Shown here piece after piece: positions 19,036 through 42,923 of a stretch of DNA of 43,607 nt (position 1 is the first letter of the stretch; each line of letters starts with the position of its first letter). The translations under genes and the position numbers were made by a program. The stretch lies in NCBI GenBank assembly GCA_016783505.1, contig JADHWK010000017.1:1-43607 (forward strand), in the 5' to 3' direction. Source of the stretch: Candidatus Zhuqueibacterota bacterium (GTDB lineage: Bacteria; BS750m-G25). The notes under the pieces are model-generated. The model was not told where the DNA came from and ran no database searches. It worked only from the letters and a program-made list of their open reading frames with translations.

Positions 19036-19449
19036 CTATTGCTCCTCTAGAAATTCTCTTATTTTATCCATAGTTTCTTCTGTATGGCGTTCAATTTCAC
19101 ACTCCCATACTCGTAAGACCCGCCATCCGAGATCCGTTAATTCTTGCATATGTCTTTGATCTCGCTCTTTATTCTTTAAAAGTTTTTTAGCCCAATATTC
19201 GGTTCTAGTACCTGGTATTCTTCCCTCTTTACAATCCTTGTGCAAGTGCCAAAAACACCCATGAACAAATATAATTGCATTATATTTTTTTAAAACAATA
19301 TCTGGTTTTCCTATTAAATTTTTCACATTTATCCTGAATCTATAACCCATTGAATGCAAAAGGCTACGAACAAGCTTTTCAGGTTTCGTATCCTTACTTC
19401 GTATTCTTGACATCACTTCACTTCTTTTATCTTTAGTCCAAATATCCAT
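19036..19449 (-). CDS. vsr: very-short-patch repair endonuclease
   Basis: 137 aa with FVHGCFWH and the downstream motifs typical of Vsr. It sits immediately downstream of a C5-methyltransferase gene, the classical dcm-vsr arrangement. Confidence 0.85.
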   Translation of the reverse strand: MDIWTKDKRSEVMSRIRSKDTKPEKLVRSLLHSMGYRFRINVKNLIGKPDIVLKKYNAIIFVHGCFWHLHKDCKEGRIPGTRTEYWAKKLLKNKERDQRHMQELTDLGWRVLRVWECEIERHTEETMDKIREFLEEQ

Positions 19450-19473
19450 ACTGTAAGCTTATATTAATTATTC

Positions 19474-20604: not shown

Positions 20605-20657
20605 TTTTGAAAATAAATAATTATTTTAATAATTCAAATTCATATATTTTAAATGAT

Positions 20658-22382: not shown

Positions 22383-22399
22383 TATAAACTCCGTAATGT

Positions 22400-24931
22400 T
22401 TAAACTAGGCGATCCGTTACCATCCTCAAAGTCTGATTTATTTTCCTAATATAGTTAATGTCGGGATTCCTATATTCAGAGAACGCTAGCATATCCTCAA
22501 GGCACCTTTGGTATTTACCAACAATCTCTTTCTTAATCTTTTGCAGGGTCTGCGGATCAGGTACATCTAGTTTTTCATAAAGTTCTTCCCAGTATTTACC
22601 ATCGAAGAATTTATCAGGGTAGTTTCGGAAAAGGGTTACTATCATATTATCTGGTAAATACCTCAGGTATTCCCCGCTTTTAGTAAGTTCATCCTTCCTG
22701 TGCAAAAGGTTATTTTTGTGAAGTTGATCAATCACACATGACTGTTCCTTATCGTCCATGTTTTCATATATAGATTGCGATGTTCTTCCGAAAAGACTGG
22801 GGAGGGCATCACCCATCTGTCTGAAGAATTCTTTGACTTCTCTAGATACTTCTTCGCTGTCAAGCTCTACCCGTTTCCTCCAAACCTCAGAATGGATCAG
22901 GTAATATAGGTTGGAATGGGACCATAATTGTCTGCTTTCATCTGTAATCCTGCCCTGGTAGCTCTGCCATATCCATTTTGCAACTTCGATAGAAATAATA
23001 TCTTCTGGTCTGTCCTGGTATCTATTATAAATCGGGTGGGTCTGGTCGAGGAAAACATGCATTTCATTTGCAGTACAGTGCACCACTGCTGGCAACCTGA
23101 ATTCGCCTCTCTGCAATACTAAACCGTTATTTACGTAATAAGCCTTTAGCTGTAACGATGACATAGAGATGCCATCGGGAAGTTTAATAGAGAGGCTTTC
23201 GCTAGAAAGATCACCAACCATAGTAGAATTTTCTTTTAAATATTCAAATTTAAACGTATCTTCAACCCCTCGAGGTAGCCCGCACCTTCTACACTTAAAA
23301 GCATCGGGTGGGTTTCTCCGCAGACAAGAATTGCACGTCCATTCTCTTTCTTCTTCAGGTACCTGGTTTTTACCACAGTTAGGACATGTAGGGGCTGAAA
23401 GGGCTATATCTTGGCCGCATTCTATACATTTTTTAGCAATAAAAATGTGGCCGCAGTGACACTGTTCCTCATTTTTGAGACATTGCATACCACAGTTAGG
23501 ACACTCTTTCATTTCAGGTGCTGGTCGGATATCTGCCCTCTCAACAAGCGCCCACCATCCAGAATCGTCTTTGGGACCGTAACCGGGTTCATTTTTTTCA
23601 AACTTCTCGTACAATTCCTTTTCAACTTCTCTAGAAATACGGCTAGGACCACCTTTGCTTTCATCCCAGTAACCCAAATACATATCGGACCGTCCAGGTT
23701 TCCTGACTCTTCTATACCCCTGGAAGAGCTTATAAATTGGCGATTTGTTTTCTGGTTCGTTATAGGACCGCTGGGTCTCTGGCAAAAGAGAGCTATCTCC
23801 GCGCAGGAATTTTATTATTTCTATCCACTCAGGCGACGTACTCTGAAAATCAGTTTTTGTAAAATCTGTAGGTACATGGTCAATATGGACTTCCCCTACT
23901 ATACGCCCGTGTATTCCATCAACAACATATTCCTTAATTTTTTCTCCTGTAGCTTCAGGAGTCCAATAAAACACAGCTTCTTTTTCTTCTATAAGGATTG
24001 CCCTTCCGTTTCTAATAAAATCTATGCCATATTTATTTTGGTCATCGAACCGCTGAATTCCTACAAACCCTTTAATTAAACATTCCCTAGTTTTGACTTT
24101 ACCCGCTTTTCCGCAATGTTCACATTCATCCATATGCAATGGAACTAAGCTGCTACAGGTATAGCATCTTTTCTCTGTCCTGAGTATCTCATGAAAATCA
24201 AACCTCGCCGGGATACGTCCGTGCCCGATTCTTTCTACAAACCTGTTAGCTCCCCATACACAATGGTGAAAAACAGGGCATTCCCTGCTATTTACATTTA
24301 TATTTAATTTTTTCCTTAACAAAGTAGAGTACCTTCTACCAATCTGCTTTGTAAGCTTAGGAATACCTATGTTAACAAGTTTTTTTATAAATCCGTAATT
24401 CTGGGTCCCTTCCTCCCACCAGTCTGAAATTTCTACTTCAACACCTGTATATTCTTCATATGCTTTCGGGCATTCTTCAACGGGCACATCAAAAGTTCCA
24501 CCTTTGACTAGCTCTGGCAGATTAATTGTGATGCAAAAAAGATTTTTATCTTCTTTCCGCGCAGTTCTAAATACAGTTTTTTTTCCTAGTTTCCCTGTTG
24601 AAATATTAAAACCCATGCCGAAAAGTCCTAGTTTCCCGATTGCTTCATGTCCGCTGAACCCCGCCCTTACTGCGTCATTAGCTTCTTCCTTGCTTAATCC
24701 TGGACCATTATCTCTAATAATCACTCTACCGATTTCTTCATCAATTTCCCTCCTTGTAGGCAACGTAATGTCAATAGTTGGATTTTTAATTTCCAGCCCC
24801 TCCTCTTTTGCTTCACTAAATCCATCAACAGAATTATCAATTAATTCACAAATTGCATTAATAGGTGGCATAGGATTATGTGTAATAACTTCAAGGATTC
24901 TGGGATTCGGTGTAATATTAATAGTTTTCAT
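22400..24931 (-). CDS. GHKL-superfamily ATPase (MORC/MutL/HATPase_c-like) with central array of zinc-ribbons and a large uncharacterised C-terminal region
   Basis: 843 aa. Bergerat fold motifs present: N-box ELIDNSVDGF, G1 IRDNGPGL and G2 GLFGMGFNIS. The middle region has at least 5 CxxC pairs in tandem (CYTCS...CEHCG; CPNCG...CHCG; CIECG...CPNCG; CNSCL...CRRCG). The about 330-aa C-terminal region has no recognised domain. Confidence 0.75.
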   Translation of the reverse strand: MKTINITPNPRILEVITHNPMPPINAICELIDNSVDGFSEAKEEGLEIKNPTIDITLPTRREIDEEIGRVIIRDNGPGLSKEEANDAVRAGFSGHEAIGKLGLFGMGFNISTGKLGKKTVFRTARKEDKNLFCITINLPELVKGGTFDVPVEECPKAYEEYTGVEVEISDWWEEGTQNYGFIKKLVNIGIPKLTKQIGRRYSTLLRKKLNINVNSRECPVFHHCVWGANRFVERIGHGRIPARFDFHEILRTEKRCYTCSSLVPLHMDECEHCGKAGKVKTRECLIKGFVGIQRFDDQNKYGIDFIRNGRAILIEEKEAVFYWTPEATGEKIKEYVVDGIHGRIVGEVHIDHVPTDFTKTDFQSTSPEWIEIIKFLRGDSSLLPETQRSYNEPENKSPIYKLFQGYRRVRKPGRSDMYLGYWDESKGGPSRISREVEKELYEKFEKNEPGYGPKDDSGWWALVERADIRPAPEMKECPNCGMQCLKNEEQCHCGHIFIAKKCIECGQDIALSAPTCPNCGKNQVPEEEREWTCNSCLRRNPPDAFKCRRCGLPRGVEDTFKFEYLKENSTMVGDLSSESLSIKLPDGISMSSLQLKAYYVNNGLVLQRGEFRLPAVVHCTANEMHVFLDQTHPIYNRYQDRPEDIISIEVAKWIWQSYQGRITDESRQLWSHSNLYYLIHSEVWRKRVELDSEEVSREVKEFFRQMGDALPSLFGRTSQSIYENMDDKEQSCVIDQLHKNNLLHRKDELTKSGEYLRYLPDNMIVTLFRNYPDKFFDGKYWEELYEKLDVPDPQTLQKIKKEIVGKYQRCLEDMLAFSEYRNPDINYIRKINQTLRMVTDRLV

Positions 24932-26305: not shown

Positions 26306-26731
26306 TTAATCCTCTTCAAATGTTATTCTTGCCAACACAAACCTTGAAATCTTCTCCGCTGCTTCAAAAGCCTCATATGCATCTCTCTCACCAATGGCTT
26401 CCCAGGGTAGATCTCCCGGGTAACGACCTTCTTCGATATATTCGTCTAACAGTTTGCATTCCTCTCTTAAATCTTCAAAGTCCGAATCAAACTCAATGGC
26501 ATAGGCTAACAGGTTCTCTTAATCGTGAATTTTCTTAAGTCTCCATCCATTCCAGATAAGGTAGGCTTTCAAGTATTTTTCTGCACATCCTTGACATATA
26601 AAACATACTGTATGGCATGGAATGAAATGTTCACCCTCAAAATCAGATTTAATAGATTTTTTTGCGGCAATCAAATTATCCCTTGCAAAAAGTAGCCATT
26701 CCTTAACATATTCAACATTATTTTTTTTCAT
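26306..26731 (-). pseudogene. HEPN-domain toxin interrupted by an in-frame TAA
   Basis: The first part, from the internal Met, reads MKKNNVEYVKEWLLFARDNLIAAKKSI...CQGCAEKYLKAYLIWNGWRLKKIHD and stops at TAA (26519-26521). The same frame continues ENLLAYAIEF...LLDEYIEEGRYPGD..., which contains the HEPN RYP (Rx4-6H-type) region. The stop sits at a position normally occupied by Leu (TTA), consistent with a single-nucleotide nonsense change. Confidence 0.55.
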
Positions 26732-27067
26732 ATAATACCTTTCCGTCCTTAAAGATATGATACAGATAAAAATGATCCCCCATTTCAAATCTTCGCTTAA
26801 CTTCTTCCGTTTTTCGAACCCATAAATCAACTGGAAATTTCCTGCCCCAGAGCAAATCTGCCACTTTTCTTCGCATCATCCGACTATTGTGGTCGCCGTC
26901 CTTGATAATAAATAAGTCTAAATCACTACTTTCACGATAATCTCCCTTAGCATAAGAACCAAATAAGATAATCTTTTCAGGATTAATGGCTCTTACAATT
27001 TTCTGAACGATATATTGTATTAACTCCGGGGTAATTTTAGAAGTAGCTAATTTTTTATCACCTGTCA

Positions 27068-27068
<1 letters not shown>
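26718..27068 (-). CDS. minimal nucleotidyltransferase (MNT) antitoxin of an MNT/HEPN toxin-antitoxin pair
   Basis: 116 aa with the pol-beta-like NTase motif LFGSYAKGDYRESSDLDL. Its start overlaps the ligA stop (TAATG) and its stop overlaps the HEPN gene start. Confidence 0.7.
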
Positions 27069-29968: not shown

Positions 29969-30733
29969 TTATTTTTTCTCAGGGGATGCCAGCTTCAGGT
30001 CCAGAAAAGGCTTGAACAGGTCAATGGGAACGGGAAATGCGATAGTAGAATTATTCTCAGCCCCCACTTCGGTCAGGGTCTGCAGGTACCGTAGTTGCAG
30101 GGCAATCGGATGTTCAGCGATGATACCCGCCGCTTCCGCCAGTTTAGCGGACGCCTGAAATTCACCATCGGCGTGGATGACCTTGGCCCTCCGCTCCCGT
30201 TCGGCCTCGGCCTGCTTGGCCATGGCCCGCTTCATTTCCTCGGGCAGGTCCACGTGCTTTACCTCGACGTTGGAGACCTTGATCCCCCAGGGGTCGGTTT
30301 GCCTGTCAATGATCTCCTGGAGCTGTTTGTTGATCTTCTCCCGGGCGCTTAAGAGTTCGTCCAACTCCGCCTGGCCCAGGATACTCCGCAGGGTGGTCTG
30401 GGCCAACTGAGAGGTGGCGTAGAGGTAGCGCTCCACCTCCACCACCGCCCTGCTGGGGTTGATCACCCGGAAGTAGAGCACCGCGTTCACCTTCATCGAG
30501 ACGTTGTCCCTGGTGATGATGTCCTGGGGTGGCACGTCCAGCACCACCGTCCGCAGGCTAACCCTCACCATGCGATCAACGATGGGGATGAGCAGAAAGA
30601 TCCCCGGCCCCTTGGCCCCGACCAACCTTCCCAACCGGAAGATCACCCCCCGCTCATACTCCCTACACACCCGCACGGCGCTGGCCAAAAGCAGCACCAG
30701 CAGGACAATAATGGTGACTAATCCTAACGGCAT
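29969..30733 (-). CDS. SPFH/band-7 (stomatin-like, slipin) protein
   Basis: 254 aa with an N-terminal TM helix and the SPFH domain ([14 protein letters not shown]... [25 protein letters not shown]), followed by a C-terminal coiled coil with the [10 protein letters not shown] motif. Confidence 0.85.
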
Positions 30734-30929
30734 ATTTCCATCCTCCTTTTAAATGATATTTCTCTTTTCTCGGTCTTTAATAGTGTTCATTATATTTGAA
30801 TATACAAAGTATAATCAAAACTTGTTTGACTAATGTCAAAGATGTGACCCCTTATCGACTAACATGTTGTTATATCGCACTTTATCGCTTTCCCTTGAGA
30901 ATTTAAGATATGGCTTTCCTCCGGATTCA

Positions 30930-32054
30930 TCAGCTTTTCCATTTCACATTTACAAAAGTACCCCAGATACCGAAGAACACAAGATATGGAATATGTAATA
31001 GTGCAGATATGGGGAAATATGACATTAATTTACTTTCTTTTAAAAGTAATGACGTTTGATAAAGTAGAAAAAATTCTGAGACTGTCTTAATAGCGAATGA
31101 GATTATTGGTATTGTTGAAAAACCTAGTCCTAAGATAAAAGATGGTACTGTAATCAACAGGAGTAAATTATAAAAGAATACCGCTGATAGTGCAGCAGTC
31201 ATGGGAAGTGAATAATGCAATCCTTTGGATGCCCATCGCATTCGTTGCCTTAGAATTTGGATTAGAGTAAACGGTGGTACAGTATTGACAAATGACCCTT
31301 CTGATGAGGCAAACCGGAATTTCCAATGTGTTCTATCACGGATAAGCATCATCAATAAGTCGTCATCACCCGAGTCGAATTGTTTGATTTCAGAAAATCC
31401 GCCTACTTCATCAAAAGCCTTGCGGCGATAAGCAAGATTTCGTCCTGCACACAGGATGGGATAGCCACCACCAATTCCACCGGCACCAGCAGAGATGATT
31501 GATAGGTTGTCAAATTGTATCAGTCTATTAATAAATCCATTTCCTTCAATAGGAGAGTAACCAGCTACAAATCCTACATTGCTATCGAAGTATTTTACCA
31601 TTTCAGCTATCCAATACTGTGAGGGGAAGCAATCGGCATCTGTTGTGCATATGATTTCTCCTTTCGATATAGAAATTCCACGAGTAAGTGCATATTTTTT
31701 AGGTGATATCATGTAATCGTCCGGAACATCTTCAATTTCAATCAGATGCAAATTTGGATGGGTTGTCAAATATGATTTAACAATTTCACCCGTTTTATCT
31801 TCTGAGCGATCATTAACGATAATTACTTCATAAAGTTCCTTTGGATAGTTCTGATTGATAAGTGCCTTAATACATTCCTTTATTGTTTTTTCCTCGTTCC
31901 TTGCCGCGACAATTATTGAGATAAAAGGTTTATCTTTATTTAGTTTGTGTTGTGATTTTACTCTTCTGAGATAGTAAACACCAAAATTCAGCCACAAAAC
32001 AACAAGAAAGTAAAAACCTGTCAATCCAAAGAGTATTATCTCAATGACATCCAT
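30930..32054 (-). CDS. membrane-embedded processive GT2 glycosyltransferase (NodC/PgaC/cellulose-synthase-like)
   Basis: 374 aa. N-terminal TM helix, GT-A domain (IIVAARNEEKTI, DADC) and the processive-GT signature QRMRWA (QxxRW), followed by several C-terminal TM helices. Confidence 0.75.
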   Translation of the reverse strand: MDVIEIILFGLTGFYFLVVLWLNFGVYYLRRVKSQHKLNKDKPFISIIVAARNEEKTIKECIKALINQNYPKELYEVIIVNDRSEDKTGEIVKSYLTTHPNLHLIEIEDVPDDYMISPKKYALTRGISISKGEIICTTDADCFPSQYWIAEMVKYFDSNVGFVAGYSPIEGNGFINRLIQFDNLSIISAGAGGIGGGYPILCAGRNLAYRRKAFDEVGGFSEIKQFDSGDDDLLMMLIRDRTHWKFRFASSEGSFVNTVPPFTLIQILRQRMRWASKGLHYSLPMTAALSAVFFYNLLLLITVPSFILGLGFSTIPIISFAIKTVSEFFLLYQTSLLLKESKLMSYFPISALLHIPYLVFFGIWGTFVNVKWKS

Positions 32055-32068
32055 ATAACCTTTTTATA

Positions 32069-33238
32069 CTAAAATCCCATTAGACCACAACATCGAGAAC
32101 ATATCGGTAACAGCCCTTTTTCTTTGAGCGTATTTCGGAAGAGCTGGTAGCGTTCATTATTCCAAATATCGAGAATGCTGCCTTTGGTAATATTTCCCGT
32201 AATATAATCAGAATAATCTCTACAAGTTACTACATCACCGTTTGGCATTATCTCACAAATCAACCAGGGTGCAACGCATTGTTTATAGCTAAACTTTTCT
32301 GATGCGTCTTGGTAATATTTGGGAATTTGTTCGGTTTTCAAGTCGGGCAGAAAGATGTATTGAAATTTCCATTTTTTGGATTTAATTCTTTGAACGTTTT
32401 CTTGAATGGCTTTTGTGTCAATCTTATCAATTGGAAGCAAGTATCCTGTCCATGATGTTGGTGTTATACCGAAATGTTCTTGCATAATTTCCACATATTG
32501 TTTGCCGATTTCTTGATTTGTAAACCACGAATAATAACATACTACTGCATCTGCGCCTACATCTTCAATAATTTTAAATAGATTATATAATTCATAGTTA
32601 TTACGATCTGAAATAGTAATTAAAAAGACTAAGTAAGGCAATGAACTATCATGCTTCAGTTTATATTCATGAACTTGTCTAACGCCATCCATTAGATGTT
32701 GGTAACTTTTGTTCCATCCACGAATTTTATTATGTACTTCTTCAGGACCATCGAGGGACATTAGTAACCCATCCAACTTCATTCGCACCAGTTCTTCTGC
32801 ATTTTTTACTAATCCAATACCATTTGTAACGATTGTAGTTGTTAGCTGCATTTCTTTTAGATACCATAATACATCCATAATTGAATGATACAAAAATGGT
32901 TCGCCACCCCATATATAGAAAATTGGATTGAAAGGTTTAATGTCATCAATCAAGTTTTCATAAACTTTGAAAGGTAATTCGACATTGATAACTTCGCCGG
33001 GTTTAGCAAAGTTATAACCTTTCTCACCCCATTGAGCACACATTTTACAGCTAAGATTACATTTGTTGGTAATCTTAAGGCTTAATTGACGGAATGGCGC
33101 ACTTCTACCTTTTTTGAAATAGTAATCATAATTTACCGTTAGATGTTTCCGTAAAAGTGAGGAAAAAACCTGCATTATAAGATGCGGCTGTTGTGTCAAA
33201 AGTCGTTTTAAAACAGTAAATGGGACATTACTATGCAT
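32069..33238 (-). CDS. radical SAM enzyme with C-terminal SPASM/twitch domain
   Basis: 389 aa with CNLSCKMC (CxxxCxxC). The C-terminal region has additional Cys clusters (CVAPWLICEIMPNGDVVTCRDY...GNI...ILDIWN...CSRCCGLMGF) matching the SPASM pattern. Confidence 0.75.
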   Translation of the reverse strand: MHSNVPFTVLKRLLTQQPHLIMQVFSSLLRKHLTVNYDYYFKKGRSAPFRQLSLKITNKCNLSCKMCAQWGEKGYNFAKPGEVINVELPFKVYENLIDDIKPFNPIFYIWGGEPFLYHSIMDVLWYLKEMQLTTTIVTNGIGLVKNAEELVRMKLDGLLMSLDGPEEVHNKIRGWNKSYQHLMDGVRQVHEYKLKHDSSLPYLVFLITISDRNNYELYNLFKIIEDVGADAVVCYYSWFTNQEIGKQYVEIMQEHFGITPTSWTGYLLPIDKIDTKAIQENVQRIKSKKWKFQYIFLPDLKTEQIPKYYQDASEKFSYKQCVAPWLICEIMPNGDVVTCRDYSDYITGNITKGSILDIWNNERYQLFRNTLKEKGLLPICSRCCGLMGF

Positions 33239-33244
33239 GGTTTT

Positions 33245-33640
33245 TTTCTTGATTGAATTTTAAAGTATTACCTTTCCTTAAGCAATTCCATTTTAAGGAT
33301 CATCCGATCCATGCCTACCACCTTTATTTTTGTTCCCGCCTTGATCTTAATGCATTACCTTCAATAATTTTTCCCCTCGTTTTTCAATTATATCCTTTTT
33401 TGACCCCTCAACCAATTCTTTGACAGCTTCTGTTCGCAGTAGTTTTTTAACATTAAAATTCTTTGGTATTTTAAGCTGATGCCTAAAACAGTTTGCAGGG
33501 TGGTTATTGAGAAAAGCCGCTACATTAATAGTGGTATCATCATACAGCACCCGTATTTCATAGTCTTTTCCTTCAAATGTCATTGGAATTTTTTTAAATA
33601 GGTCCATAATCATCCCCGTTCATCATTTTTGAAAAAACCT
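33245..33640. repeat. Segmental duplicate unit 1 (diverged nfeD 3'-end fragment plus 88-aa gene plus about 30 nt upstream)
   Basis: Aligned by eye to 34740-35215, at about 95% identity across the small gene and its upstream leader (atccccgttcNtcatttttgaaaaaacctaacg). The copies diverge beyond that leader. Confidence 0.6.
33347..33613 (-). CDS. hypothetical 88-aa protein, paralogue of the ORF at 34905-35165
   Basis: About 90% identical at protein and DNA level to the 86-aa ORF at 34905-35165, including about 60 nt of upstream sequence. It is first in an apparent operon with the radical SAM and GT2 genes. No recognisable motif. Confidence 0.5.
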   Translation of the reverse strand: MIMDLFKKIPMTFEGKDYEIRVLYDDTTINVAAFLNNHPANCFRHQLKIPKNFNVKKLLRTEAVKELVEGSKKDIIEKRGEKLLKVMH

Positions 33641-33777
33641 AACGCCTGAGCTCACCTGCCCCGAGACTTCAGGGTCAGGTGACAACGACTTGCTATACAT
33701 ATAGCTCTACCCTGCAATTGTCTTCGTAAAAATAGGAAGTATTGGAAGTTAGACCCTCTACTTGATCTCCTATTTGC

Positions 33778-34179
33778 CTATATTTCCAATATGCACTCTT
33801 TAAAGTCTATTTTTAGTTTAAGTTCAACCAACGATTTCAATCCAAGCAATCCGTCTACATAGCTTTTGGGTGGAAGATCATGGACAACAACCCCAGTCCC
33901 TTCTATCTTTTTACCCAAAACAACCATAGACTTCAGGGTGACCAAAGGTGCTTTTTCCACTCCACTGGCAGTAATTATCTCTATTCTCTCTTTGGATAAC
34001 TCTGGCTCTAACCCTAAAATATCAGCGGTGTTCCATGGAATCATAGAAAAGGTTGCCCCTGTATCAAGAGCCATCCTTATCTTTTGCTTAGAGTTACTGC
34101 TACCCTCCAATAGGACACTTAATATGATTACTGGTGCTTTGGTGTTAAATCTAAACTTTGACATAAAATGCAACCGCAT
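33778..34179 (-). CDS. retropepsin-like (clan AA) aspartic protease
   Basis: 133 aa with the ALDTGAT catalytic motif (D-T/S-G-A) and a hydrophobic-hydrophobic-G motif downstream. It has an N-terminal hydrophobic segment. Confidence 0.6.
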   Translation of the reverse strand: MRLHFMSKFRFNTKAPVIILSVLLEGSSNSKQKIRMALDTGATFSMIPWNTADILGLEPELSKERIEIITASGVEKAPLVTLKSMVVLGKKIEGTGVVVHDLPPKSYVDGLLGLKSLVELKLKIDFKECILEI

Positions 34180-34471
34180 AACCCTTTTGGGGAATCTTTC
34201 CTGTATAGAAATGGTAGGTATATTTACCTTTCGCCTGTTTCATTGCCCCATAGGTATCATCCCTATTTTTAGAATGGGCTATCATCTTCACTTCTGTTGG
34301 TTCTCCCAATTTATCCTCTTTTAATACCTCAACCAATACCCATTCATTCTTGTATTTTTCTTCTACCTCTTTAACCTTCATTTCTACACCCCTATTTGTT
34401 TTGCGATATTTAGTGTCAAACCTAAAAGACGAAAAGTAGAATATAATTCTGCTTTCGAAATCTAACCCCAA
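34151..34471 (-). CDS. hypothetical small protein upstream of, and overlapping, the retropepsin-like gene
   Basis: 106-aa ORF. The likely true start is the internal Met at about 34381 (MKVKEVEEKYKNEWVLVEV...). No recognisable motif. It overlaps the protease gene start. Confidence 0.3.
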   Translation of the reverse strand: MGLDFESRIIFYFSSFRFDTKYRKTNRGVEMKVKEVEEKYKNEWVLVEVLKEDKLGEPTEVKMIAHSKNRDDTYGAMKQAKGKYTYHFYTGKIPQKGYAVAFYVKV

Positions 34472-34490
34472 TTGCCCATTGAATACTGTA

Positions 34491-34692
34491 TTATCTAACA
34501 GTCTGGATTAACCCTATATCTCTTCTGAGCCAGTCGTTCACTATCGTCTCAATGTCCGTATCTTTTTCCCCAGCAAGGTTACGGATGAAATCAGCTATCT
34601 TTGGCTCCAGATAAACAGGGAAATTTAATTCGGCATCAGGATGATAAAACTTGCCACGCTCACCCTTGTAAAAAATCGTATTCTTTCTTCAT
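34491..34692 (-). pseudogene. BrnA-like (CopG/RHH-type) antitoxin remnant with a frameshift in a T6 homopolymer
   Basis: ATG AAG AAA GAA TAC GAT TTT TTA CAA GGG TGA gives MKKEYDFLQG*. Removing one T yields MKKEYDFYKGERGKFYHPDAELNFPVYLEPKIADFIRNLAGEKDTDIETIVNDWLRRDIGLIQTVR, which resembles the EYDFSKGKRG...DWFK family of BrnA-type antitoxins. No partner toxin is evident. Confidence 0.4.
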
Positions 34693-34739
34693 AAGTTTCA
34701 CCAGCAATACCCCCCAATTCCGTGAAAAATGTTAATACC

Positions 34740-35215
34740 CAATTTTTGAGTTCAAGATCTTTAAAATAGCATACCTAACTAAACCGTAAAATTTGGGTAA
34801 TTTCCAATATTTTTTTATCCTACAATCAACTTTCCCTAAACCGTTCCACCTTAAGGATCATCCGATCTACGCCGATCACCTTAACTCTTGTTCTCGCCTT
34901 GATCTTAGTGCATTACCTTCAATAATTTTTCCCCTCGTTTTTCAATTATATCGTTTTTTGACACATCAATTAATTCTTTGACGGCGTCTGTTCGCAGTAG
35001 TCTTTTAACATTAAAATTCTTTGGTATTTTAAGCTGATGCCTAAAACAGTTTGCAGGGTGGTTATTGAGAAAAGCCGCTACATTAATAGTGGTATCATCA
35101 TACAGCACCCGTATTTCATAGTCTTTCTCTTCAAATGTCATTGGAATTTTTTTTAATAGTCTCATAATTATCCCCGTTCCTCATTTTTGAAAAAACCTAA
35201 CGAAAAGCTAAGCTG
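34740..35215. repeat. Segmental duplicate unit 2 (~100-nt nfeD downstream flank plus ~75-nt nfeD 3'-end plus 86-aa gene plus leader)
   Basis: 34740-34904 matches 41530-41700 (the nfeD tail and its downstream flank). 34905-35215 matches 33347-33640. Confidence 0.6.
34905..35165 (-). CDS. hypothetical 86-aa protein, paralogue of the ORF at 33347-33613
   Basis: Near-identical to the 88-aa ORF. Like that ORF, it directly abuts an nfeD 3'-end fragment on its 3' side. Confidence 0.5.
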   Translation of the reverse strand: MRLLKKIPMTFEEKDYEIRVLYDDTTINVAAFLNNHPANCFRHQLKIPKNFNVKRLLRTDAVKELIDVSKNDIIEKRGEKLLKVMH

Positions 35216-35310
35216 TTGGAGCCCGCGAAAAACGGGTTTGAATCAGTTTGAGTGATAGGTTAAGATTTTATTTTGTGCTCAAATCCAATACTTTGGACCT
35301 AAACCCATCT

Positions 35311-35757
35311 TCATTTTAAGGGGTTGAGGTTGGCGTGGGCAATCCACTGCCAACCGCTGTCTGTCTTCAAAAAGACACTAAGCCTCGGGGCTGGCTTGGT
35401 TGACAGTCGTTTGCCCTCGATCGTCTCCTCCACTGAAACAAAGTAAGTTGCGATGATGACGGGGCCATTTTGAGTCACTTCAAAATTACTCAGAGTATAT
35501 TCGCCAATGTTCAGTCCCCTAAGTAATTCTATCTGTTGCTCCCGATTACGTGCGCCGTCCTCATGCACTGATTGAAAGCCTGGGGCGATCTTCTTTTCAA
35601 GCGCCGCCAAATTCCGCGCTTTCATATCAGCCCACAACTGACGCACCAATTTCTCGCCCAGGGTAGGTTCAGGGGCGGACTGCTCAGCGGTCAGGCGAAC
35701 TTGGCTGACAAACAGAAAGGCGAAGGCAAGCAATAATACTGATTTTAATGTATTCAT
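35311..35757 (-). CDS. secreted NTF2-like/SnoaL-like (DUF4440-like) protein
   Basis: 148 aa with a signal peptide (LLLAFAFLFVSQVRLTA). The length and hydrophobic pattern are compatible with an NTF2-like fold. This call is weak. Confidence 0.4.
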   Translation of the reverse strand: MNTLKSVLLLAFAFLFVSQVRLTAEQSAPEPTLGEKLVRQLWADMKARNLAALEKKIAPGFQSVHEDGARNREQQIELLRGLNIGEYTLSNFEVTQNGPVIIATYFVSVEETIEGKRLSTKPAPRLSVFLKTDSGWQWIAHANLNPLK

Positions 35758-35803
35758 CTTTCCCTCCTTTCTACGATTAACCTAAATTCCAAATGTGCAT
35801 CTA

Positions 35804-35865
35804 CCACGAAAATTCCGCAGTTCCTATTAATAGTAAGCGATCTAAAAAGCCCAGAAGCTACCCAC
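35804..35865. repeat. Conserved ~65-nt upstream element, copy 1 (shared with 38867-38935)
   Basis: tccgcagttcct...cgatctaaaaaScccagaagctacccacgcRcctaacg occurs upstream of two unrelated minus-strand genes. It contains a GGAACT element. Confidence 0.4.
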
Positions 35866-36041
35866 GCACCTAACGGATTGCTGTTCAGCGGTGCAAGGAC
35901 TACGGCACACTGAACTTCATATTTAAAAAATGACTTTATGCGATGCAACAAACGCAACTAATTCTAAACATTGCCCTTGCATACGTTGTAACCGCTGGTT
36001 AGACATGATCTATTATGACAAAATTAGAAATAAATCATAAA

Positions 36042-36890
36042 TTATTTTTCACTCAATAATAGTTCAGGTAATTCCCAAGATTTTCTATACTCGATAAAGA
36101 GTTGTTTTGTAAATTGTACTAAAATTGGATTTTTCAATGCGTCCAACCAATAAATAATATCTTTCATAGCTGAAGGAGCCATAGCTGTACAACCAGAGGT
36201 TGAATCTGTAGGACTAGACCAATTATGTAAGAAAATGCATGATCCAGCGCCTTTCTTACTGGGATTTTTATTATGATCAACCACAACACCCAACTCATAC
36301 CATATATCTGACAGACGCATTTTTTCAGACGAATGCCAATCAACGTTTTCAACTTCATTTCGGAGGACAATTAAATTATAGTACCTTGAATTCACGTCAT
36401 CCACACATTCCAGCATTTCGGTAACGTGAATATAAGGGATTTTTATACTATACATTTTTTCTACTGGAGAATAGGCAAATGCAGAACTCAACGTGAAAAC
36501 TCCTGCTGGACTTCTTCCATCTCCTTCTCTTTTAATTGGAATGTTTGTAGTATCTAATCTGTGCAATCCTATTCCCCAACCAAGTCCATTTTTCCCTATA
36601 ATAACATGTATTTTATCAACCAACTTATTCCAATCAGTTTCAGCATTATCGCGCTCAAAACGAAATAGAATCCCATTAGATTTCTTAAATGATTCAATTA
36701 TAACTAAAATCATCTGGCGACTAGATGAAGGGATTGGCGAAGTATTTTTAATTTGAGCAAAACAGAGTGAATTATTTAGAAGTGTAATAATAAGATAAAA
36801 TGAAAATTTCTTGGTTGCAGAAAAAGACATTTTTCTATTCTTCTTTAATAGGTCTAACGTTAAAATAAGCTGCTGGAACATACGGCGCAC
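36042..36890 (-). CDS. putative L,D-transpeptidase-like (YkuD) domain protein
   Basis: 282 aa. It has an internal signal peptide and a C-terminal region with His and Cys in an arrangement resembling the YkuD H...SxGCxxM motif (FLHNWSSPTDSTSGCTAM). Confidence 0.4.
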   Translation of the reverse strand: MRRMFQQLILTLDLLKKNRKMSFSATKKFSFYLIITLLNNSLCFAQIKNTSPIPSSSRQMILVIIESFKKSNGILFRFERDNAETDWNKLVDKIHVIIGKNGLGWGIGLHRLDTTNIPIKREGDGRSPAGVFTLSSAFAYSPVEKMYSIKIPYIHVTEMLECVDDVNSRYYNLIVLRNEVENVDWHSSEKMRLSDIWYELGVVVDHNKNPSKKGAGSCIFLHNWSSPTDSTSGCTAMAPSAMKDIIYWLDALKNPILVQFTKQLFIEYRKSWELPELLLSEK

Positions 36891-37002
36891 TGTATTTCAA
36901 TATTTTAAAAAACGTTTTGCGTGCACTGAAAATACAAATTCGCACATCGCTGTTCCAGACAGCTTAATTTTGATTGTTATAAGGTATTTACCACAAAATA
37001 TA

Positions 37003-38235
37003 TTATTTTAATAAAACTAATTTTCGCGATTCTATAAAGCCCTTGTCCGTTTGTAATCTAGAATAATATATTCCACTGGCAAAACCACTAGCATCCCATT
37101 CCACATTATGATTACCTGCTGACTGTTTTGTGGATACCAACGTTGCCACCTTTTGACCAAGAAGATTGTAAATACTAATATCTACTTTGCTGATACTTGA
37201 TAATTGATATTCGATAGTTGTTACCGGATTGAATGGATTGGGATAATTTTGAAGCAAGGCAAAGCCTTCGGGAATTTCATTCTGTGAATCTCCAACCGAC
37301 GCGATTGCTCTCAGCTCCTCGATCACTTGGCTGCTCACCCAGTATGGATTGCCGTCCCATTGTTGATGCCGGTCGGAATGGAAAAACAGATACAATCCGT
37401 CGGGTGACACGAATGGTGCATTTTCCTGGGCAGAAGAGTTCACCGGCTCACCCATGTTTAAGGCGGGCGTCCATGAGCCGTCCGCCTTCTTGAAACTAAT
37501 GTATAAATCCGCCCCTCCATATCCCCCTGGACGATGGGATTCAAAGATCAAGTATTCATCGTCAGGATCGATATACGGTCCCAACTCCATGGATGATGAA
37601 TTGATGTTATCATCCAGCCTTTCAGGCGCTGAGTATATGCCGTTCACGCACCTGATGCAATAAATATCGGGATCCTGATTTCCAATCACCTCCATCCGCA
37701 AATAGAGGGTACCGTCCTTGGTGGCCGAAACCTCCCAGCCGCCGCCCAGGTTAGCAGGCCAAGGGAAATTGACTACCGTCGGAGTGGACCAACCGGTTTG
37801 TGTCCGTGTCGAAGTCCAGATCGATCCGCCGGGTCTATCGGAAATGAAATAAACGGTATTCCCGCTATCCGTAAAGGATGGGCTCGCAGTCATGAATCCT
37901 TCGGCAAATGAGGGCGTTTGAGGATCCGTCCACACATTGTCAACCATTTCCATGTAACGGATTCGAATCCCCTGATAATTGGCAGGCACATAAATGTCCA
38001 TATAAAACTCATTGCCGTCCTGCGTGAATGCCAGGGCGCCGTGCCACCACCAATCCGCATTCGACCGCAACTGGTTGGGTACGAACATTTGTGGCGTATT
38101 CCCCGGCGGCGCTTGCCCGAGATACGGCCCGGTGAGTTGTTGACCGAACGATAAACCAATACCACAGACAAAAATAGCAAATACGACCGTCAATAAAACA
38201 ACGGTCGTTACCGATGGAATGTTTTTCTTCTTCAT
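37003..38235 (-). CDS. secreted PD40/TolB-like beta-propeller protein with type IX secretion system C-terminal sorting domain
   Basis: 410 aa with a signal peptide and repeated PD40 motifs (VYFISDRPGGSIW; LIFESHRPGGYGGADLYIS; LFFHSDRHQQWDG). The C-terminal about 80 aa match the Por_Secre_tail/T9SS CTD pattern (NYPNPFNPVTTIEYQL...GIYYSRLQTDKG...KLVLLK). Confidence 0.7.
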   Translation of the reverse strand: MKKKNIPSVTTVVLLTVVFAIFVCGIGLSFGQQLTGPYLGQAPPGNTPQMFVPNQLRSNADWWWHGALAFTQDGNEFYMDIYVPANYQGIRIRYMEMVDNVWTDPQTPSFAEGFMTASPSFTDSGNTVYFISDRPGGSIWTSTRTQTGWSTPTVVNFPWPANLGGGWEVSATKDGTLYLRMEVIGNQDPDIYCIRCVNGIYSAPERLDDNINSSSMELGPYIDPDDEYLIFESHRPGGYGGADLYISFKKADGSWTPALNMGEPVNSSAQENAPFVSPDGLYLFFHSDRHQQWDGNPYWVSSQVIEELRAIASVGDSQNEIPEGFALLQNYPNPFNPVTTIEYQLSSISKVDISIYNLLGQKVATLVSTKQSAGNHNVEWDASGFASGIYYSRLQTDKGFIESRKLVLLK

Positions 38236-38537
38236 AAATATCTCTCCTGTTAATCATTTGATTTTTTCTAGAGTTTGCACATATGACATATATTCCTGAG
38301 ACAAGCATTCAAAAAAAAGTGTTATCTTTTCATTATAACGTTTCGCATAACGGGCAAAACCGCTAAACGCGATAATAATGAAAGCAGACTTTAGACATAA
38401 AATTCAGAAACACTTAAAACGCTGCAGCGGTTTTGTCCCTGTTCAAACGATTGTTAGGTCATCAGTTGTTAGTTCCTTGCCAGGCATTGCAAGAACGCGT
38501 ATCCCAGACTCCTTTCTATAATGCCACCATTACATGA

Positions 38538-38804
38538 TCAATCAATACGGCTTAACTTAAGCGTGATACCACACGGATCAGGGCAGTGGATTACAGCAAC
38601 CCCATTCTCGTCTTCCCAGGGGAAGTCCCCGCCATAACAAAGGGTCATTAGATAAGGAGCGATTGCTTCCCAAGCACCCAGACAGATCCCCTCAGGAGTT
38701 GTCTCATCTACCTTGAACACCTGGCCAACGACGTGAATGCCGCCTTGGCATACTCCGTCTTTGACTGTGATACTAACAGGCACTTGTGTTTTGTTATCTT
38801 TCAT
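38538..38804 (-). CDS. hypothetical small Cys-containing protein (88 aa)
   Basis: ORF with 5 Cys (C19, C41, C57, C75, C79), Gly-rich (VKDGVCQGGIHVVGQ). No confident family assignment. Confidence 0.4.
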   Translation of the reverse strand: MKDNKTQVPVSITVKDGVCQGGIHVVGQVFKVDETTPEGICLGAWEAIAPYLMTLCYGGDFPWEDENGVAVIHCPDPCGITLKLSRID

Positions 38805-38866
38805 ACTACGGGCTCCTAATGGCCGGGAGCTGAGCGGCGTCGGAACCTATTCTCCAATCTAAAAAA

Positions 38867-38935
38867 TCCGCAGTTCCTTTCAACCTACCAATATTAAACG
38901 ATCTAAAAACCCAGAAGCTACCCACGCGCCTAACG
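38867..38935. repeat. Conserved ~65-nt upstream element, copy 2
   Basis: See copy 1. It has the same orientation and is located about 65-130 nt upstream of the start codon of the small Cys-protein gene. Confidence 0.4.
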
Positions 38936-38975
38936 ACCACTGCTAACAGGCGCCGGGTAATCCTAAGACATGAAC

Positions 38976-39674
38976 TCATGCCTCAACTAAAAGCGTCCCG
39001 TTTATGACATTTTTAGACTTAACTTTCTTTTGTTTTTTTATTTGTTTTTTTTTTTTAATCATGCTGCGAATTTTCGATTTTGTCCCCATCAAAATATATT
39101 TCGACTGATAACTTTTTAAATATTTAACGGTCTTATCATAATCTTCTAATATTTTTGTGATATCATCATTATTAGAATCATCTTGATCCGGGTCGAAGTA
39201 TTTCCATTTATAATGAACAAATGCATTTCTGTGCTCCATCAATTGGAGCATCCTTAATTTATGATCATTGTGGAGGGGTTTAAAATTAAAAATTTCTAGT
39301 AGCCATGTAATTTTACCTATAAAAGAAACACTACGGATTATGTCCTTTATAACACTATATTTTATACCTTGCCTCCTACAAACTGATGAAATAATTCCAT
39401 TAATCCAATGTTCAGTCCATACTGCATACAGTAAACAAGATAAGTGTGGCTTCCCCAAGTTTCTGAATTCTCGTGCATTATTTAAAATGTCGGAAATATG
39501 ATCAATGGAAATTTCAAACCGAATGTTATTTAATTTGGGTAGATATTTTTCAAAGTATTTTTTAATTATAAGATGAAGTTCTTCAGGAGTTTTTTCTGAT
39601 GGATCTATCGTCCCATCGGCAATCATGCCTTCTAAAATACACCATACAAGTTCTTTCTCATAAGATTTTTTCAT
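38976..39674 (-). CDS. HEPN-like (Abi-type) protein
   Basis: 232 aa, acidic/basic, with the candidate HEPN Rx4H motif MEHRNAFVHYKW near the C-terminal third. It has a Lys-rich tail. Weak call. Confidence 0.35.
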   Translation of the reverse strand: MKKSYEKELVWCILEGMIADGTIDPSEKTPEELHLIIKKYFEKYLPKLNNIRFEISIDHISDILNNAREFRNLGKPHLSCLLYAVWTEHWINGIISSVCRRQGIKYSVIKDIIRSVSFIGKITWLLEIFNFKPLHNDHKLRMLQLMEHRNAFVHYKWKYFDPDQDDSNNDDITKILEDYDKTVKYLKSYQSKYILMGTKSKIRSMIKKKKQIKKQKKVKSKNVINGTLLVEA

Positions 39675-40075
39675 GAATTCAGAAATTTTGTTAGAAACCT
39701 TAGGTTAAGTCTAACGTTTTCGGCATCACCGGCCGAAACGCCAAGAGCAACTATCACGATTGATGTTATTCCACCAAACTTACAAACGCGGAATCAATGG
39801 ACCGCGGTTCGATCCGACTGCAGTTTTGTGTTATATGCTCAAAAATAAATCTGAGTATTTATCCTTCTCTTCCGGACTAAGATCATGAACTCTAGTTCTT
39901 GAGGACAAATCCATAAACATGCCTTCAGTCATGAAAAAATTTCCTTTATCGGCTAAGAATATCTAGTTTGTGTTTCTCCTGACAAATTCAACGAAGCACC
40001 TTGTTTAGACACAGTATAATAACGCCAACCCAAAACTGACTTCCCTAACCGCAATTTTAGGCATCTATGATTTTT

Positions 40076-40678
40076 CTATGTTGTTGCTATTCTTTTAGAA
40101 ACAGCGGCCATAAGTCCATAATATCCGTATGCAAGTACTAAAATAAAAATTATTTGAAGAGGGAAGAAAATATATGTTTTTAAAGACTTCCAAACTGTTC
40201 CTTCCATTAAGGCCGTTTTTATTACAATTACTTTATCGGCATATTGATTTTTATGCGCACGACTTAATTCATCAAAAATAGAAAATTCTTCGGTAAAGTA
40301 TTGTTGCAGGGTTATTGAGTCGTTCTCAAGCTTCCTGTTTAAATCAGCCAGATTAGTATCTTGATACGACATAGATTTAAAACTCGAAATTATTCTATTC
40401 TTAATAATTTTTTGATTTTCTTGTGAAAACCGTTCAAAGGGTATAAACTGTTTGAAAGCAGCAAATTCACTGCTTAATTGATCGTTGGCGGAGACTTGCA
40501 GAAGATTGGAAGCTCCCAATATTTCCAGAAAAACTGAATTCTGATATTCACTAATACGAAAATCCGCATATTGAATCAGAACCGATGAAACGAAAACAAA
40601 AATTAAGGAAATGATCTGTAGTCGGAGGATTCTAACCTCTTCGATGACTCTCATAATTTCCTCCGCTTTTTGCTTCAT
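40076..40678 (-). CDS. hypothetical membrane protein (TM helices at both termini)
   Basis: 200 aa. Hydrophobic helices at the N-terminus (LQIISLIFVFVSSVLI) and C-terminus (IFFPLQIIFILVLAYGYYGLMAAV). No motif. Confidence 0.4.
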   Translation of the reverse strand: MKQKAEEIMRVIEEVRILRLQIISLIFVFVSSVLIQYADFRISEYQNSVFLEILGASNLLQVSANDQLSSEFAAFKQFIPFERFSQENQKIIKNRIISSFKSMSYQDTNLADLNRKLENDSITLQQYFTEEFSIFDELSRAHKNQYADKVIVIKTALMEGTVWKSLKTYIFFPLQIIFILVLAYGYYGLMAAVSKRIATT

Positions 40679-40803
40679 CCATTATTTGCCTAACATATTT
40701 TTGACTGCCCAATTACCGTGTTATAACATGGCGTTTAGGCCGAATAAACGGCGTTCCAAAGAAATGAGCGAGAAAGAAATCCGTCAATATTATTCCCCGA
40801 CAA

Positions 40804-41025
40804 TTAACCTTCCTTAAACCGTTCCACCTTAAGGGTCATCCGCTCCACGCCGATGACCCTGACCTTTGTTCCCGCCTTTATAGTCCGGGCGCTGGTGGCG
40901 TTCCATATCTCACCATGAACGGATACACTGCCGTCCTTAAAAACATTAGTGCGGGCCTCGCCGATCTCCCCCACCAGTCCCTCAGTCCCGGTGGCCACCT
41001 GGCGTTTATGGGCCCGTAAGCCCAT
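40804..41025 (-). pseudogene. orphan duplicate of the nfeD C-terminal OB-fold domain (the last ~73 codons; gene fragment)
   Basis: About 240 nt (40790-41040) are about 95% identical to the 3' end of nfeD at 41628-41870. The encoded protein, MGLRAHKRQVATGTEGLVGEIGEARTNVFKDGSVSVHGEIWNATSARTIKAGTKVRVIGVERMTLKVERFKEG, matches the NfeD tail nearly exactly. Homology ends abruptly at about 41040. Confidence 0.6.
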
Positions 41026-41155
41026 GGACAGGGCGAAGATATGGTTGCTACCAATTCCGTCTGAAATATTTCTTCAACAGCAAGGATGATTAATGGCCCT
41101 AGGTTTGGAAACCCAGGGCCACCCGCGAAATTAGTATCGAACTGTGCTTAATTGG

Positions 41156-41344
41156 CTACTTCTCAACCAACTTCTTAAAGGAAAAGCCAATTGCAAGGCA
41201 CATTCCAATTGCCAGAGCCCAGATACCAATAATGTTCAAAAGCATAGTACCATTGGCAAGACCAATAGTAATCAGTACTAATCCCCCAATTAGGAAGATG
41301 TGAGAGATTATCCATTGGGCGATAGTTAATACTTTTAAACCCAT
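41156..41344 (-). CDS. hypothetical small membrane protein (62 aa, two TM helices)
   Basis: ORF with two hydrophobic helices. No homology evidence. Confidence 0.3.
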   Translation of the reverse strand: MGLKVLTIAQWIISHIFLIGGLVLITIGLANGTMLLNIIGIWALAIGMCLAIGFSFKKLVEK

Positions 41345-41627
41345 TGTTAAAACCTCCTATGTGTTTGTTTTATTAAAATCTCAATTTTTCTTTACTTTAA
41401 ACCATGCTAATATTATAACTAAGAACTTCCTGCTGGGGGGCTCCTTTCGTGGATGTTTCTAATATTCAGAATTTTTACTTTCACAATCATTCAAAAAAGG
41501 CTTGTAAAATACCTTGCATAGATATTGATATTAGGTATGGGTGTCAAAAGTCCACTTGTTCTTTAAAATTACATACCTAACTAACCCCATAATTTGGGAT
41601 AAATCTAATATTTTTTTATCCTGACAA

Positions 41628-42923
41628 TTAACCTTCCTTAAACCGTTCCACCCTTAGGGTCATCCGATCCACGCCGATAACCCTGACCTTTGTTCCCGCC
41701 TTTATAGTCCGGGCGCTGGTGGCGTTCCATATCTCCCCATGAACGGATACACTGCCGTCCTTAAAAACATTGGTGCGGGCCTCGCCTATCTCCCCCACCA
41801 ATCCCTCAGTCCCGGTGGACACCTGGCGCTTATGGGCCCGTAAGGCCATGGACAGGGCGAAGATGAAGAACAGGGCGGTGAAGATCACCGCCGGCAGAAT
41901 GACCCCCAAGGAGACTTTAAAGAAGGGCTCGGGGGATTCGAACAACATAATGGAACCTAAAATCATAGAAATCACTCCTCCCACCGTTAACATACCGTAA
42001 CTGGTAATTTTGATCTCAGCGATGAACAGCACAATTCCCAACAGGATCAGCAGCAGCCCCGCATAGTTGATAGGCAGGGTCTGAAGGGCAAAAAAGGCTA
42101 AGATCAGAAAAATGGCCCCCACCACCCCGGGGAAAATGGAGCCGGGATTAGAAAGCTCGAAGAAAAGCCCATAGATCCCCAGCATGAGGAGAATATAGGC
42201 GATGTTGGGATTGCTGATCACACTCAGGATGCGATAGCGGAGGCCCATCTCCAACCGTTTTATCACCGCCTCCTTGGTTTTGAGGATTTTTTTACCCGCA
42301 AGCACCTCCACTTCCTTGCCGTCAATGCGGTCAAGGAGCTCTCTCAGGTTCTCGCAGACCATGTCCACCACCCCTATTTCCAGGGCTTCCTTTTCGGTAA
42401 TGGAGACGCTCTTTCTAACCGCATCCTCGGCCCAGTCCGGGTTGCGTCCCCGTTTTTCGGCGATGGAGCGGTTGAAGGTAGCCCACCAGTTGGTGTACTT
42501 TTCCATTTTGACATCAGAGGTATCCTGGGGACCGGGGGTAACCGGATGAGCCGCTCCGATGTTGGTGCCGCTGGCCATAACAGCGATGTGGGCCGCCAAG
42601 GTAATGGACACCCCGGCCGACACCGCCCCGGAACCGCTGGGAGCCACGTAAACGACGACGGGAACCTCAGAGGAAAGAATATGCTTGACGATGACCTGGG
42701 TGGCCTGAACCAGTCCGCCCGGGGTATCCATCATGATGATGAGGCATTCCGCTGAATCTTCGATGGCCTCCTCAATGGATTCCTTGATAAAACGAGAGGT
42801 CACCGGAGTGATGGCGTCGTTTATCTCAATCAAGTCCACCTGGGGCACTGCCCGGGTTTGAGAAAAACCCGACAGAAAAAACCCAAAAAAGCACAGACGT
42901 AAAAAAAGGGTATACTTTTTCAT
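41628..42923 (-). CDS. nfeD: NfeD-family membrane-bound ClpP-class serine protease (stomatin operon partner protein)
   Basis: 431 aa with a signal peptide and a ClpP/crotonase-like protease domain (GGLVQATQ; SGSGAVSAG). It also has multiple TM helices and a C-terminal OB-fold beta-barrel domain. This is the canonical partner of SPFH/stomatin genes. Confidence 0.85.
   Translation of the reverse strand: MKKYTLFLRLCFFGFFLSGFSQTRAVPQVDLIEINDAITPVTSRFIKESIEEAIEDSAECLIIMMDTPGGLVQATQVIVKHILSSEVPVVVYVAPSGSGAVSAGVSITLAAHIAVMASGTNIGAAHPVTPGPQDTSDVKMEKYTNWWATFNRSIAEKRGRNPDWAEDAVRKSVSITEKEALEIGVVDMVCENLRELLDRIDGKEVEVLAGKKILKTKEAVIKRLEMGLRYRILSVISNPNIAYILLMLGIYGLFFELSNPGSIFPGVVGAIFLILAFFALQTLPINYAGLLLILLGIVLFIAEIKITSYGMLTVGGVISMILGSIMLFESPEPFFKVSLGVILPAVIFTALFFIFALSMALRAHKRQVSTGTEGLVGEIGEARTNVFKDGSVSVHGEIWNATSARTIKAGTKVRVIGVDRMTLRVERFKEG

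Follow-up and report, generated by a model that had tools for sequence, protein, structure and literature searches.

Results

Layout and composition of the nfeD-stomatin interval

The DNA analyzed here (the window) is the whole 43,607-nt contig JADHWK010000017.1 of a metagenome-assembled genome annotated as candidate division KSB1. On it are nfeD (NfeD1b class) and a stomatin gene (SPFH1/Band_7), both intact, on one strand and in the canonical order, but separated by 10,894 nt (Table 1), so that the immediate stomatin adjacency of the NfeD1b-SPFH1b operon is lacking. The full-length NfeD has all three domains, NfeD1b_N/ClpP-like (CLP_protease), NfeD_membrane and the C-terminal OB domain (NfeD), and the stomatin is 65–79% identical to the stomatins encoded directly behind nfeD in relatives. 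The Pfam domains and the distance bear out what a preliminary description of this DNA had claimed on the identity, coordinates, strand and order of the two genes. The 14 open reading frames (ORFs) between them have the same orientation as both, and nearly all genes across positions 5447–42923 are co-oriented.

The interval had been called a low-GC mosaic island, and a GC and codon-usage profile without a compositional break would have counted against that view. The break is sharp: the GC content of the island is 0.383, compared with 0.538 for the left flank, 0.536 for nfeD and 0.588 for the stomatin gene; values for the flanks range over 51–59%. GC at third codon positions (GC3) is 0.56–0.78 in backbone genes and 0.27–0.43 in most island genes; the stomatin gene, at 0.78, is backbone-like. 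Three genes, coding for the DUF4440, PD40-T9SS and TIGR04076 proteins, have intermediate GC3 (0.47–0.55), and the tetranucleotide usage of the island sub-blocks is poorly correlated (r 0.37–0.48), in keeping with a mosaic. The composition of the cargo is foreign.

The nfeD 3' end is present in four nested copies

The last 242 nt of nfeD (R_B, the live end) recur 824 nt downstream as R_A (E=9.5e-90, 95% identical). The two copies differ by 11 substitutions over 242 nt, with no indels and with sharp edges on both sides. Seven differences are synonymous and four conservative (P=0.007 vs. the neutral expectation), which argues for divergence inside working genes and not for decay after a duplication in place. 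R_A retains an intact 73-aa ORF (40804–41025) that matches the Pfam NfeD C-terminal domain (E=2.4e-15).

Two deeper remnants were found toward the stomatin gene. R_C consists of the last 78 nt of nfeD with the stop codon, continued by 68 nt whose homologue is the DNA that at present directly follows nfeD. R_D contains the final 78 nt, in-frame stop included (tblastn over 24 aa, E=8.5e-7; z=19.8 vs. shuffles). All four termini are on the same strand and all four keep the in-frame stop. Identity to the live end drops with distance from nfeD (0.8 kb, 95%; 6.8 kb, 82%; 8.4 kb, 76%), and decay in R_D is AT-biased (13 GC-to-AT vs. 5 AT-to-GC changes). R_C starts 1 nt past the stop codon of a small gene, X2, and R_D starts 1 nt past the stop codon of its relative, X1. 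Apart from the nfeD termini and the X copies, the significant repeats of the whole window are TPR-internal repeats and one pair of ~75 nt. No nfeD scar was detected at the other low-GC islands of the window. These copies uphold the earlier proposal that insertion took place at the 3' end of nfeD.

Two facts would suit a chimeric contig that had joined nfeD and stomatin to foreign DNA: the contig comes from a metagenome-assembled genome, and several short-read assemblies end at the repeats. However, three independent ENA assemblies of the same population tile the island end to end at 99–100% identity, with every junction overlapped by contigs of similar coverage (L001, window positions 43607–35072; L175, 34963–33728; L174, 34586–30889; L004, 33782–29753). 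R_A is also present in L001 and the R_C junction in L175, and the unaligned stretches of the tiling contigs are 100-N scaffold gaps. The island is not an assembly artefact: the chance of a chimera is negligible, and that explanation is effectively refuted already.

The termini delimit a stack of units

The copies impose a repeat-segment-repeat layout on the interval. Layer 1, nearest nfeD, is a 0.8-kb unit formed by the live end R_B and segment S1. Layer 2 comprises R_A and a 5.9-kb cargo block that closes with X2, and layer 3, a 1.56-kb unit, comprises R_C and a PDC-M08 cassette that closes with X1. Layer 4 is R_D, followed after 28 nt by layer 5, a basal block with a radical-SAM gene and a GT2 gene. 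The continuation behind each terminus copy is different, which is unlike a tandem duplication of a whole unit.

Some unit ends are nevertheless common. Units 1 and 3 have in common the 68 nt behind the repeat, that is, the first 68 nt of S1 and the sequence behind R_C; since R_C carries 68 nt of the present nfeD-proximal sequence, it must once have been the nfeD-proximal end. A leader-X right end is common to two units (given as units 1 and 2, with X2 closing layer 2 and X1 closing layer 3). These common ends suggest a family of related modular elements that may have used one attachment site. The island of the preliminary description thus stands as an island at the nfeD 3' end, but instead of one insertion it comprises three or more units, stacked in nested fashion, and the basal block.

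S1 encodes a 62-aa hydrophobic ORF (41156–41344) with no family match in the libraries searched. A 14-bp hairpin (GGUGGCCCUGGGUU/AACCUAGGGCCAUU, ~41096–41123, z=-2.9) is located 3' of this ORF, ~55 nt before the R_A boundary, and lacks a U-tract. Possible roles are that of a terminator or of a structure related to recombination.

X is an orphan of a two-gene module

The leader, X and R recur together as one block of ~385 nt. Divergence between X1 and X2 amounts to 15 of 261 nt (5.7%), and between R_C and R_D to 16 of 79 nt (20%). This contrast is significant over all sites (P=0.0005) but no more than suggestive against third codon positions alone (P=0.085). The difference in divergence favours two separate arrivals of X-ended units, rather than one block duplication, as the probable origin of the two copies.

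Homologues of X formed ~80 clusters in distant phyla. In the four unrelated genomes examined (4/4), X is the second gene of a strongly conserved cassette located between unrelated housekeeping genes, in which a 72-aa gene starting MKGETKE... precedes an X of 84–92 aa (L166, 387–982; L169, 5670–6279; L172, 5725–6255; L173, 5753–6276); neither protein has a Pfam match. The 72-aa partner gene is absent beside both X1 and X2. The AlphaFold2 (AF2) model of X, of high confidence (pLDDT 91.5), shows a sheet of four strands and then helices, and its comparison with the PDB gave no significant match, the weak best matches being PUR-alpha/Whirly-like. X was also considered as a recombination-module gene, e.g. 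an excisionase, and this was rejected: elsewhere it is found in the 72-aa + X cassette without recombinase or flanking repeats, and its model has no significant structural match. Possibly the module is a gene pair with an addiction or defence role that has yet to be described. The duplicated small genes noted earlier are therefore X1 and X2 (90% identical in amino acids), and the 'toxin-antitoxin remnants' of the same description hold insofar as each is the second gene of a conserved pair, here without its partner.

Adjacency of nfeD and stomatin is conserved in relatives

Related loci with 46–58% NfeD identity were fetched from GTDB species-representative genomes (80 loci) and JGI metagenomes (80 loci). 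Stomatin is encoded directly behind nfeD, on the same strand, in 152 of the 152 loci with enough downstream sequence, with a gap of ~34 nt at the median and ~306 nt at the maximum; none of these loci contains a second NfeD fragment. The 10.9-kb gap is therefore a derived state in this orthologue group, and not the ancestral separation that the preliminary description had named as the alternative. Its statement that the two genes are almost universally adjacent is correct for NfeD1b orthologues and overstated for SPFH1 genes generally, as 229 of 353 were in an operon with NfeD in a published survey (PMC2636767).

Stand-alone NfeD C-terminal ORFs elsewhere were considered as integration scars. 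Two contexts were read and neither is a scar: one is a frameshift-split nfeD with Band_7 directly behind it, and the other is a 1.2-kb contig with the same compact layout. When nfeD was examined for chimerism by comparing its N-terminal part (352 aa) and its C-terminal part (79 aa) with homologues, the OB domain was more divergent everywhere, with a correlation that is biased by hit selection.

Proposed serial accretion at the nfeD 3' end and its alternatives

We consider it fairly probable that the interval is a genomic island formed by successive recombination at the nfeD 3' end, through tandem accretion of recombinase-less integrative elements. Each incoming DNA would bring its own copy of the nfeD terminus. 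Recombination in the common segment would fuse the new terminus to nfeD, leaving the gene intact, and the previous terminus, with all the cargo behind it, would be displaced one step toward the stomatin gene. The layers would then be ordered by age, with the youngest at nfeD. Since the window contains neither a recombinase nor a transfer gene, we infer, and do not observe, site-specific joining; the recombinase would have been lost since, or would be encoded elsewhere in the genome.

Several observations weigh against this reading. Integrase, transposase, excisionase and conjugation or phage genes were detected neither in the window nor in the 5.6 kb past its right end (L001; peptidase C69, Omp85, TldD and a DUF559 fragment), so that the integrase or recombinase that the preliminary description proposed to look for on a longer contig did not appear there. 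No viral contig with the 26-nt repeat core was found. The basal block has no recognisable nfeD scar on its stomatin side, and no older scar beside the stomatin gene or in other spacers rose above the shuffled background (z=-1.1 for the 196-nt spacer). Among the loci examined, no other genome has an insertion at the nfeD 3' end. In GTDB genomes, JGI metagenomes and a large protein search the nearest NfeD relatives had 56–63% identity, the best match 63%, and hence no sister genome offers an empty or intermediate site. The repeats are unequal in length (242 nt vs. 78 nt), and a single common crossover site is thus not demonstrated. Finally, given the P value at third codon positions, X-R may be one block that was duplicated.

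The same outcome could have been reached with no dedicated recombinase, again by serial addition at the nfeD 3' end; we regard this as unlikely but worth serious attention. In a homology-facilitated illegitimate version, DNA from related strains would be taken up, one crossover would be anchored in nfeD, and an illegitimate join would attach the other end upstream of the nfeD terminus of the recipient; in a Campbell-type version, circular DNA carrying an nfeD fragment would integrate by homologous recombination. The lack of a recombinase gene nearby is in line with either version. The left edges of the repeats differ (242 vs. 78 nt before the stop), as expected of non-specific joins, and R_A and R_B, 95% identical with mostly synonymous differences, look as related-strain alleles would. 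Yet the X1-R_D and X2-R_C joins fall at exactly the same nfeD nucleotide, which requires site specificity or a secondary duplication, and the related unit ends fit an element family better than random fragments. A different account, to which we give a low probability, assumes one ancestral insertion between nfeD and stomatin, after which the nfeD terminus and the X-R block underwent local segmental duplication and unrelated insertions came later; the repeats would then be by-products of rearrangement instead of traces of successive arrivals. The repetition of X-R as one block that includes the 40-nt leader agrees with this account, an equal age of X and R is compatible with the third-position test (P=0.085), and other internal repeats are present (35809–35878 and 38862–38935). 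However, it offers no simple mechanism for three dispersed terminus-only duplications that are always co-oriented and always at unit boundaries; the synonymous bias between R_A and R_B points to divergence within functional genes, and each terminus copy continues differently downstream.

Cargo genes of the island

Table 1. Features of the nfeD-stomatin interval, from the stomatin gene to nfeD (window positions).
Feature	Position	Strand	Remarks
Stomatin (SPFH1/Band_7)	29969–30733	-	Intact, 254 aa; Pfam Band_7 E=1.5e-38
AT-rich spacer upstream of stomatin	30734–30929	-	196 nt; two sigma-70-like matches
GT2 glycosyltransferase	30930–32054	-	Pfam Glycos_transf_2 E=2.3e-25
Radical SAM/SPASM enzyme	32069–33238	-	Radical_SAM E=6.8e-17; SPASM E=8.1e-14
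R_D, remnant read as oldest nfeD 3' end	33267–33345	-	blastn 76% over 79 nt, E=6e-12
X1, orphan second gene of two-gene module	33347–33613	-	88 aa
PDC-M08 component B, retropepsin-like aspartic protease	33778–34179	-	PADLOC PDC-M08B E=1.7e-8
PDC-M08 component A	34151–34381	-	76 aa; PADLOC PDC-M08A E=1.7e-6
R_C, third nfeD 3'-end copy	34758–34903	-	blastn 82% over 147 nt, E=2e-33
X2, second X copy	34905–35165	-	86 aa, 90% aa identical to X1
DUF4440 protein	35311–35757	-	Unit 2 cargo
YkuD L,D-transpeptidase	36042–36890	-	Unit 2 cargo
PD40 beta-propeller with type IX secretion system (T9SS) C-terminal sorting domain	37003–38235	-	Por_Secre_tail, Pfam
TIGR04076 protein	38538–38804	-	NCBIfam
232-aa protein, weak HEPN/DUF3644 similarity	38976–39674	-	PADLOC
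200-aa protein	40076–40678	-	No family in any library searched
R_A, displaced nfeD 3' end	40799–41040	-	Last 79 codons, stop, ~5 nt
S1, segment read as youngest insert	41041–41622	-	582 nt, GC 0.35
R_B, live nfeD 3' end	41623–41864	-	Partner of R_A; presumed replacement end from latest arrival
nfeD (NfeD1b class)	41628–42923	-	Intact, 431 aa; Pfam PF25145, PF24961, PF01957, PF00574

Pfam confirmed the GT2 glycosyltransferase, the radical SAM enzyme, the retropepsin-like protease and the T9SS substrate of the preliminary description. The basal block (30930–33238) has a GC3 of 0.29, and neither of its two proteins matched an NCBIfam equivalog at cut-off. In layer 3 the protease matches Pfam Asp_protease_2 (E=1e-12) and TIGR02281 (E=3.5e-11); its ORF overlaps that of component A, and the adjacent pair (33778–34381) has both components of a candidate PDC-M08 defence system.

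The cargo of unit 2 (35311–40678, GC3 0.27–0.55) was annotated with Pfam, NCBIfam and PADLOC. The HEPN-like protein claimed earlier is the 232-aa protein, and the claim is weakly supported: an RNAFVH motif at residue 149 falls inside a weak PADLOC match to DUF3644 (E=0.004), a HEPN family (PMC3710099). The protein has no Pfam or PDB sequence match, its AF2 single-sequence model is unusable (pLDDT 48), and no viral contig with a relative of it was found.

Unit 2 also contains the ~75-nt direct repeat (35809–35878 and 38862–38935; 80% identity over 75 aligned nt for the core, with a near-identical central stretch). One copy is upstream of the DUF4440 start codon and the other upstream of that of the TIGR04076 gene, at distances of 52–58 nt, and the repeat is found nowhere else in the window. 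The repeat gave no signal of RNA structure (z ~+0.8) and may be a common regulatory region of these two GC-richer island genes.

Other features of the window and its edge

Between efp and thiC is a second low-GC island (GC 0.38, 19036–24931), whose genes code for Vsr, a C5 methylase of the Dcm type, an Mrr-ResIII helicase fusion and a zinc-ribbon-containing GHKL ATPase of 843 aa. It looks like a restriction or defence cluster; neither flanking repeats nor a recombinase were found there. A low-GC pair of HEPN and minimal-nucleotidyltransferase (MNT) genes, of the toxin-antitoxin type, lies between thiC and ligA (26519–27068), the MNT start codon directly abutting the ligA stop codon.

The gcvPB and gcvPA genes, normally adjacent, are separated by ~690 nt (14068–14754) with no ORF of at least 90 aa, and GC dips to 0.38 in 14001–15000. 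This gap may be a small or decayed insertion. The DinB/IMS polymerase ORF (5447–6433) matches the IMS profile only from position 77, which suggests an N-terminal truncation or a wrongly set start; on one side it adjoins a low-GC stretch (4501–5500, GC 0.41), and on the other are lexA and a TPR gene. Just past the right end of the window, the 1.3-kb gap between tldD/pmbA and nfeD contains the 76-aa DUF559/Vsr-like fragment (L001, 5322–5552), which may be a decayed insertion directly upstream of nfeD.

Discussion

At the Escherichia coli icd gene, prophage e14 and phage 21 supply an alternative 3' end with mainly synonymous differences, and the original 3' fragment persists, as a pseudo-copy, where the element ends on its far side. 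R_B and R_A resemble this pattern, but here there are four nested copies and not two, and neither phage genes nor an integrase.

A related arrangement is the tandem accretion of ICEs (integrative and conjugative elements), IMEs (integrative and mobilizable elements) and CIMEs (cis-mobilizable elements) at the 3' end of a coding gene, as in ICESt1/ICESt3 and CIMEs at fda of Streptococcus thermophilus (PMC5704250, citing Pavlovic 2004, Bellanger 2011). Direct repeats of the target-gene end are found at the unit boundaries of both loci, the target gene is intact, and decayed units lack integration and transfer genes. Accretion of the ICE/IME/CIME type also calls for a tyrosine, serine or DDE recombinase in at least one unit or, for CIMEs, whose own recombinase is lost, for one of equal specificity elsewhere in the genome or in a helper element; no unit of the KSB1 locus has a recombinase or a transfer gene, and none was detected in the 5.6 kb past the right end of the window. 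Its units are tiny (0.8–6 kb), the target is nfeD, so that a conserved two-gene operon is split, and the host is an uncultured KSB1 bacterium.

In the tycheposon islands of Prochlorococcus, older elements are displaced deeper by new arrivals at the same site, and the attachment site persists in partial copies (10.1101/2020.12.28.424599). Serial arrivals at one site, scattered partial site copies with degraded elements, and adaptive or defence cargo are likenesses to the stack described here. Tycheposons, however, use tRNA genes, tyrosine recombinases and replication modules; the KSB1 island is at a coding-gene 3' end, and no such modules were seen. A tRNA or known RNA as attachment site was looked for in the present locus and none was found, with no Rfam match. 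An integron, which the cassette-like stacking had brought to mind, was rejected as well: the window has no integrase, and the boundaries are copies of a coding-gene terminus and not attC, again with no Rfam match.

The canonical NfeD1b-SPFH1b operon is that of Pyrococcus PH1510/PH1511 (PMC2636767, PMC4208085). As in that operon, both KSB1 genes are intact, co-oriented and in canonical order, and NfeD has ClpP-like, membrane and OB domains; unlike it, they have 10.9 kb with 14 foreign genes between them, in a position where related loci have a median of ~34 nt. The two best sigma-70-like matches of the region are in the spacer upstream of the stomatin gene (minus strand, 30839–30811 and 30818–30789); both score 10/12 and are consensus matches only. 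Their location makes separate transcription of stomatin plausible, and from it we infer that the gene would now be transcribed from a spacer promoter and no longer together with nfeD.

It is conceivable, though at long odds, that the nfeD terminus acts as a gene-capture platform in the KSB1 lineage, at which small recombinase-less units (0.8–6 kb) with modular ends (68-nt left, leader-X right) would be inserted serially by an unlinked trans-acting recombinase. If so, the platform would be a functional analogue of an integron in which recombination takes place at a coding-gene terminus.

That islands grow by accretion at attachment sites is well established, and the value of the present case is therefore mainly that of a clean example and of a lead to the proposed recombinase. 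The four nested termini allow relative dating of the layers and make an unusually legible record of how an island was assembled. The nfeD 3' end is an integration site unseen at the other nfeD loci examined, and we know of no characterised mobile elements in candidate phylum KSB1. Among the 152 related loci examined, this is the sole case in which the nfeD-stomatin pair would be transcriptionally uncoupled while both genes remain intact. Should stomatin still be acted on by the NfeD protease, as has been described in Pyrococcus, linkage in an operon would not be essential to their partnership.

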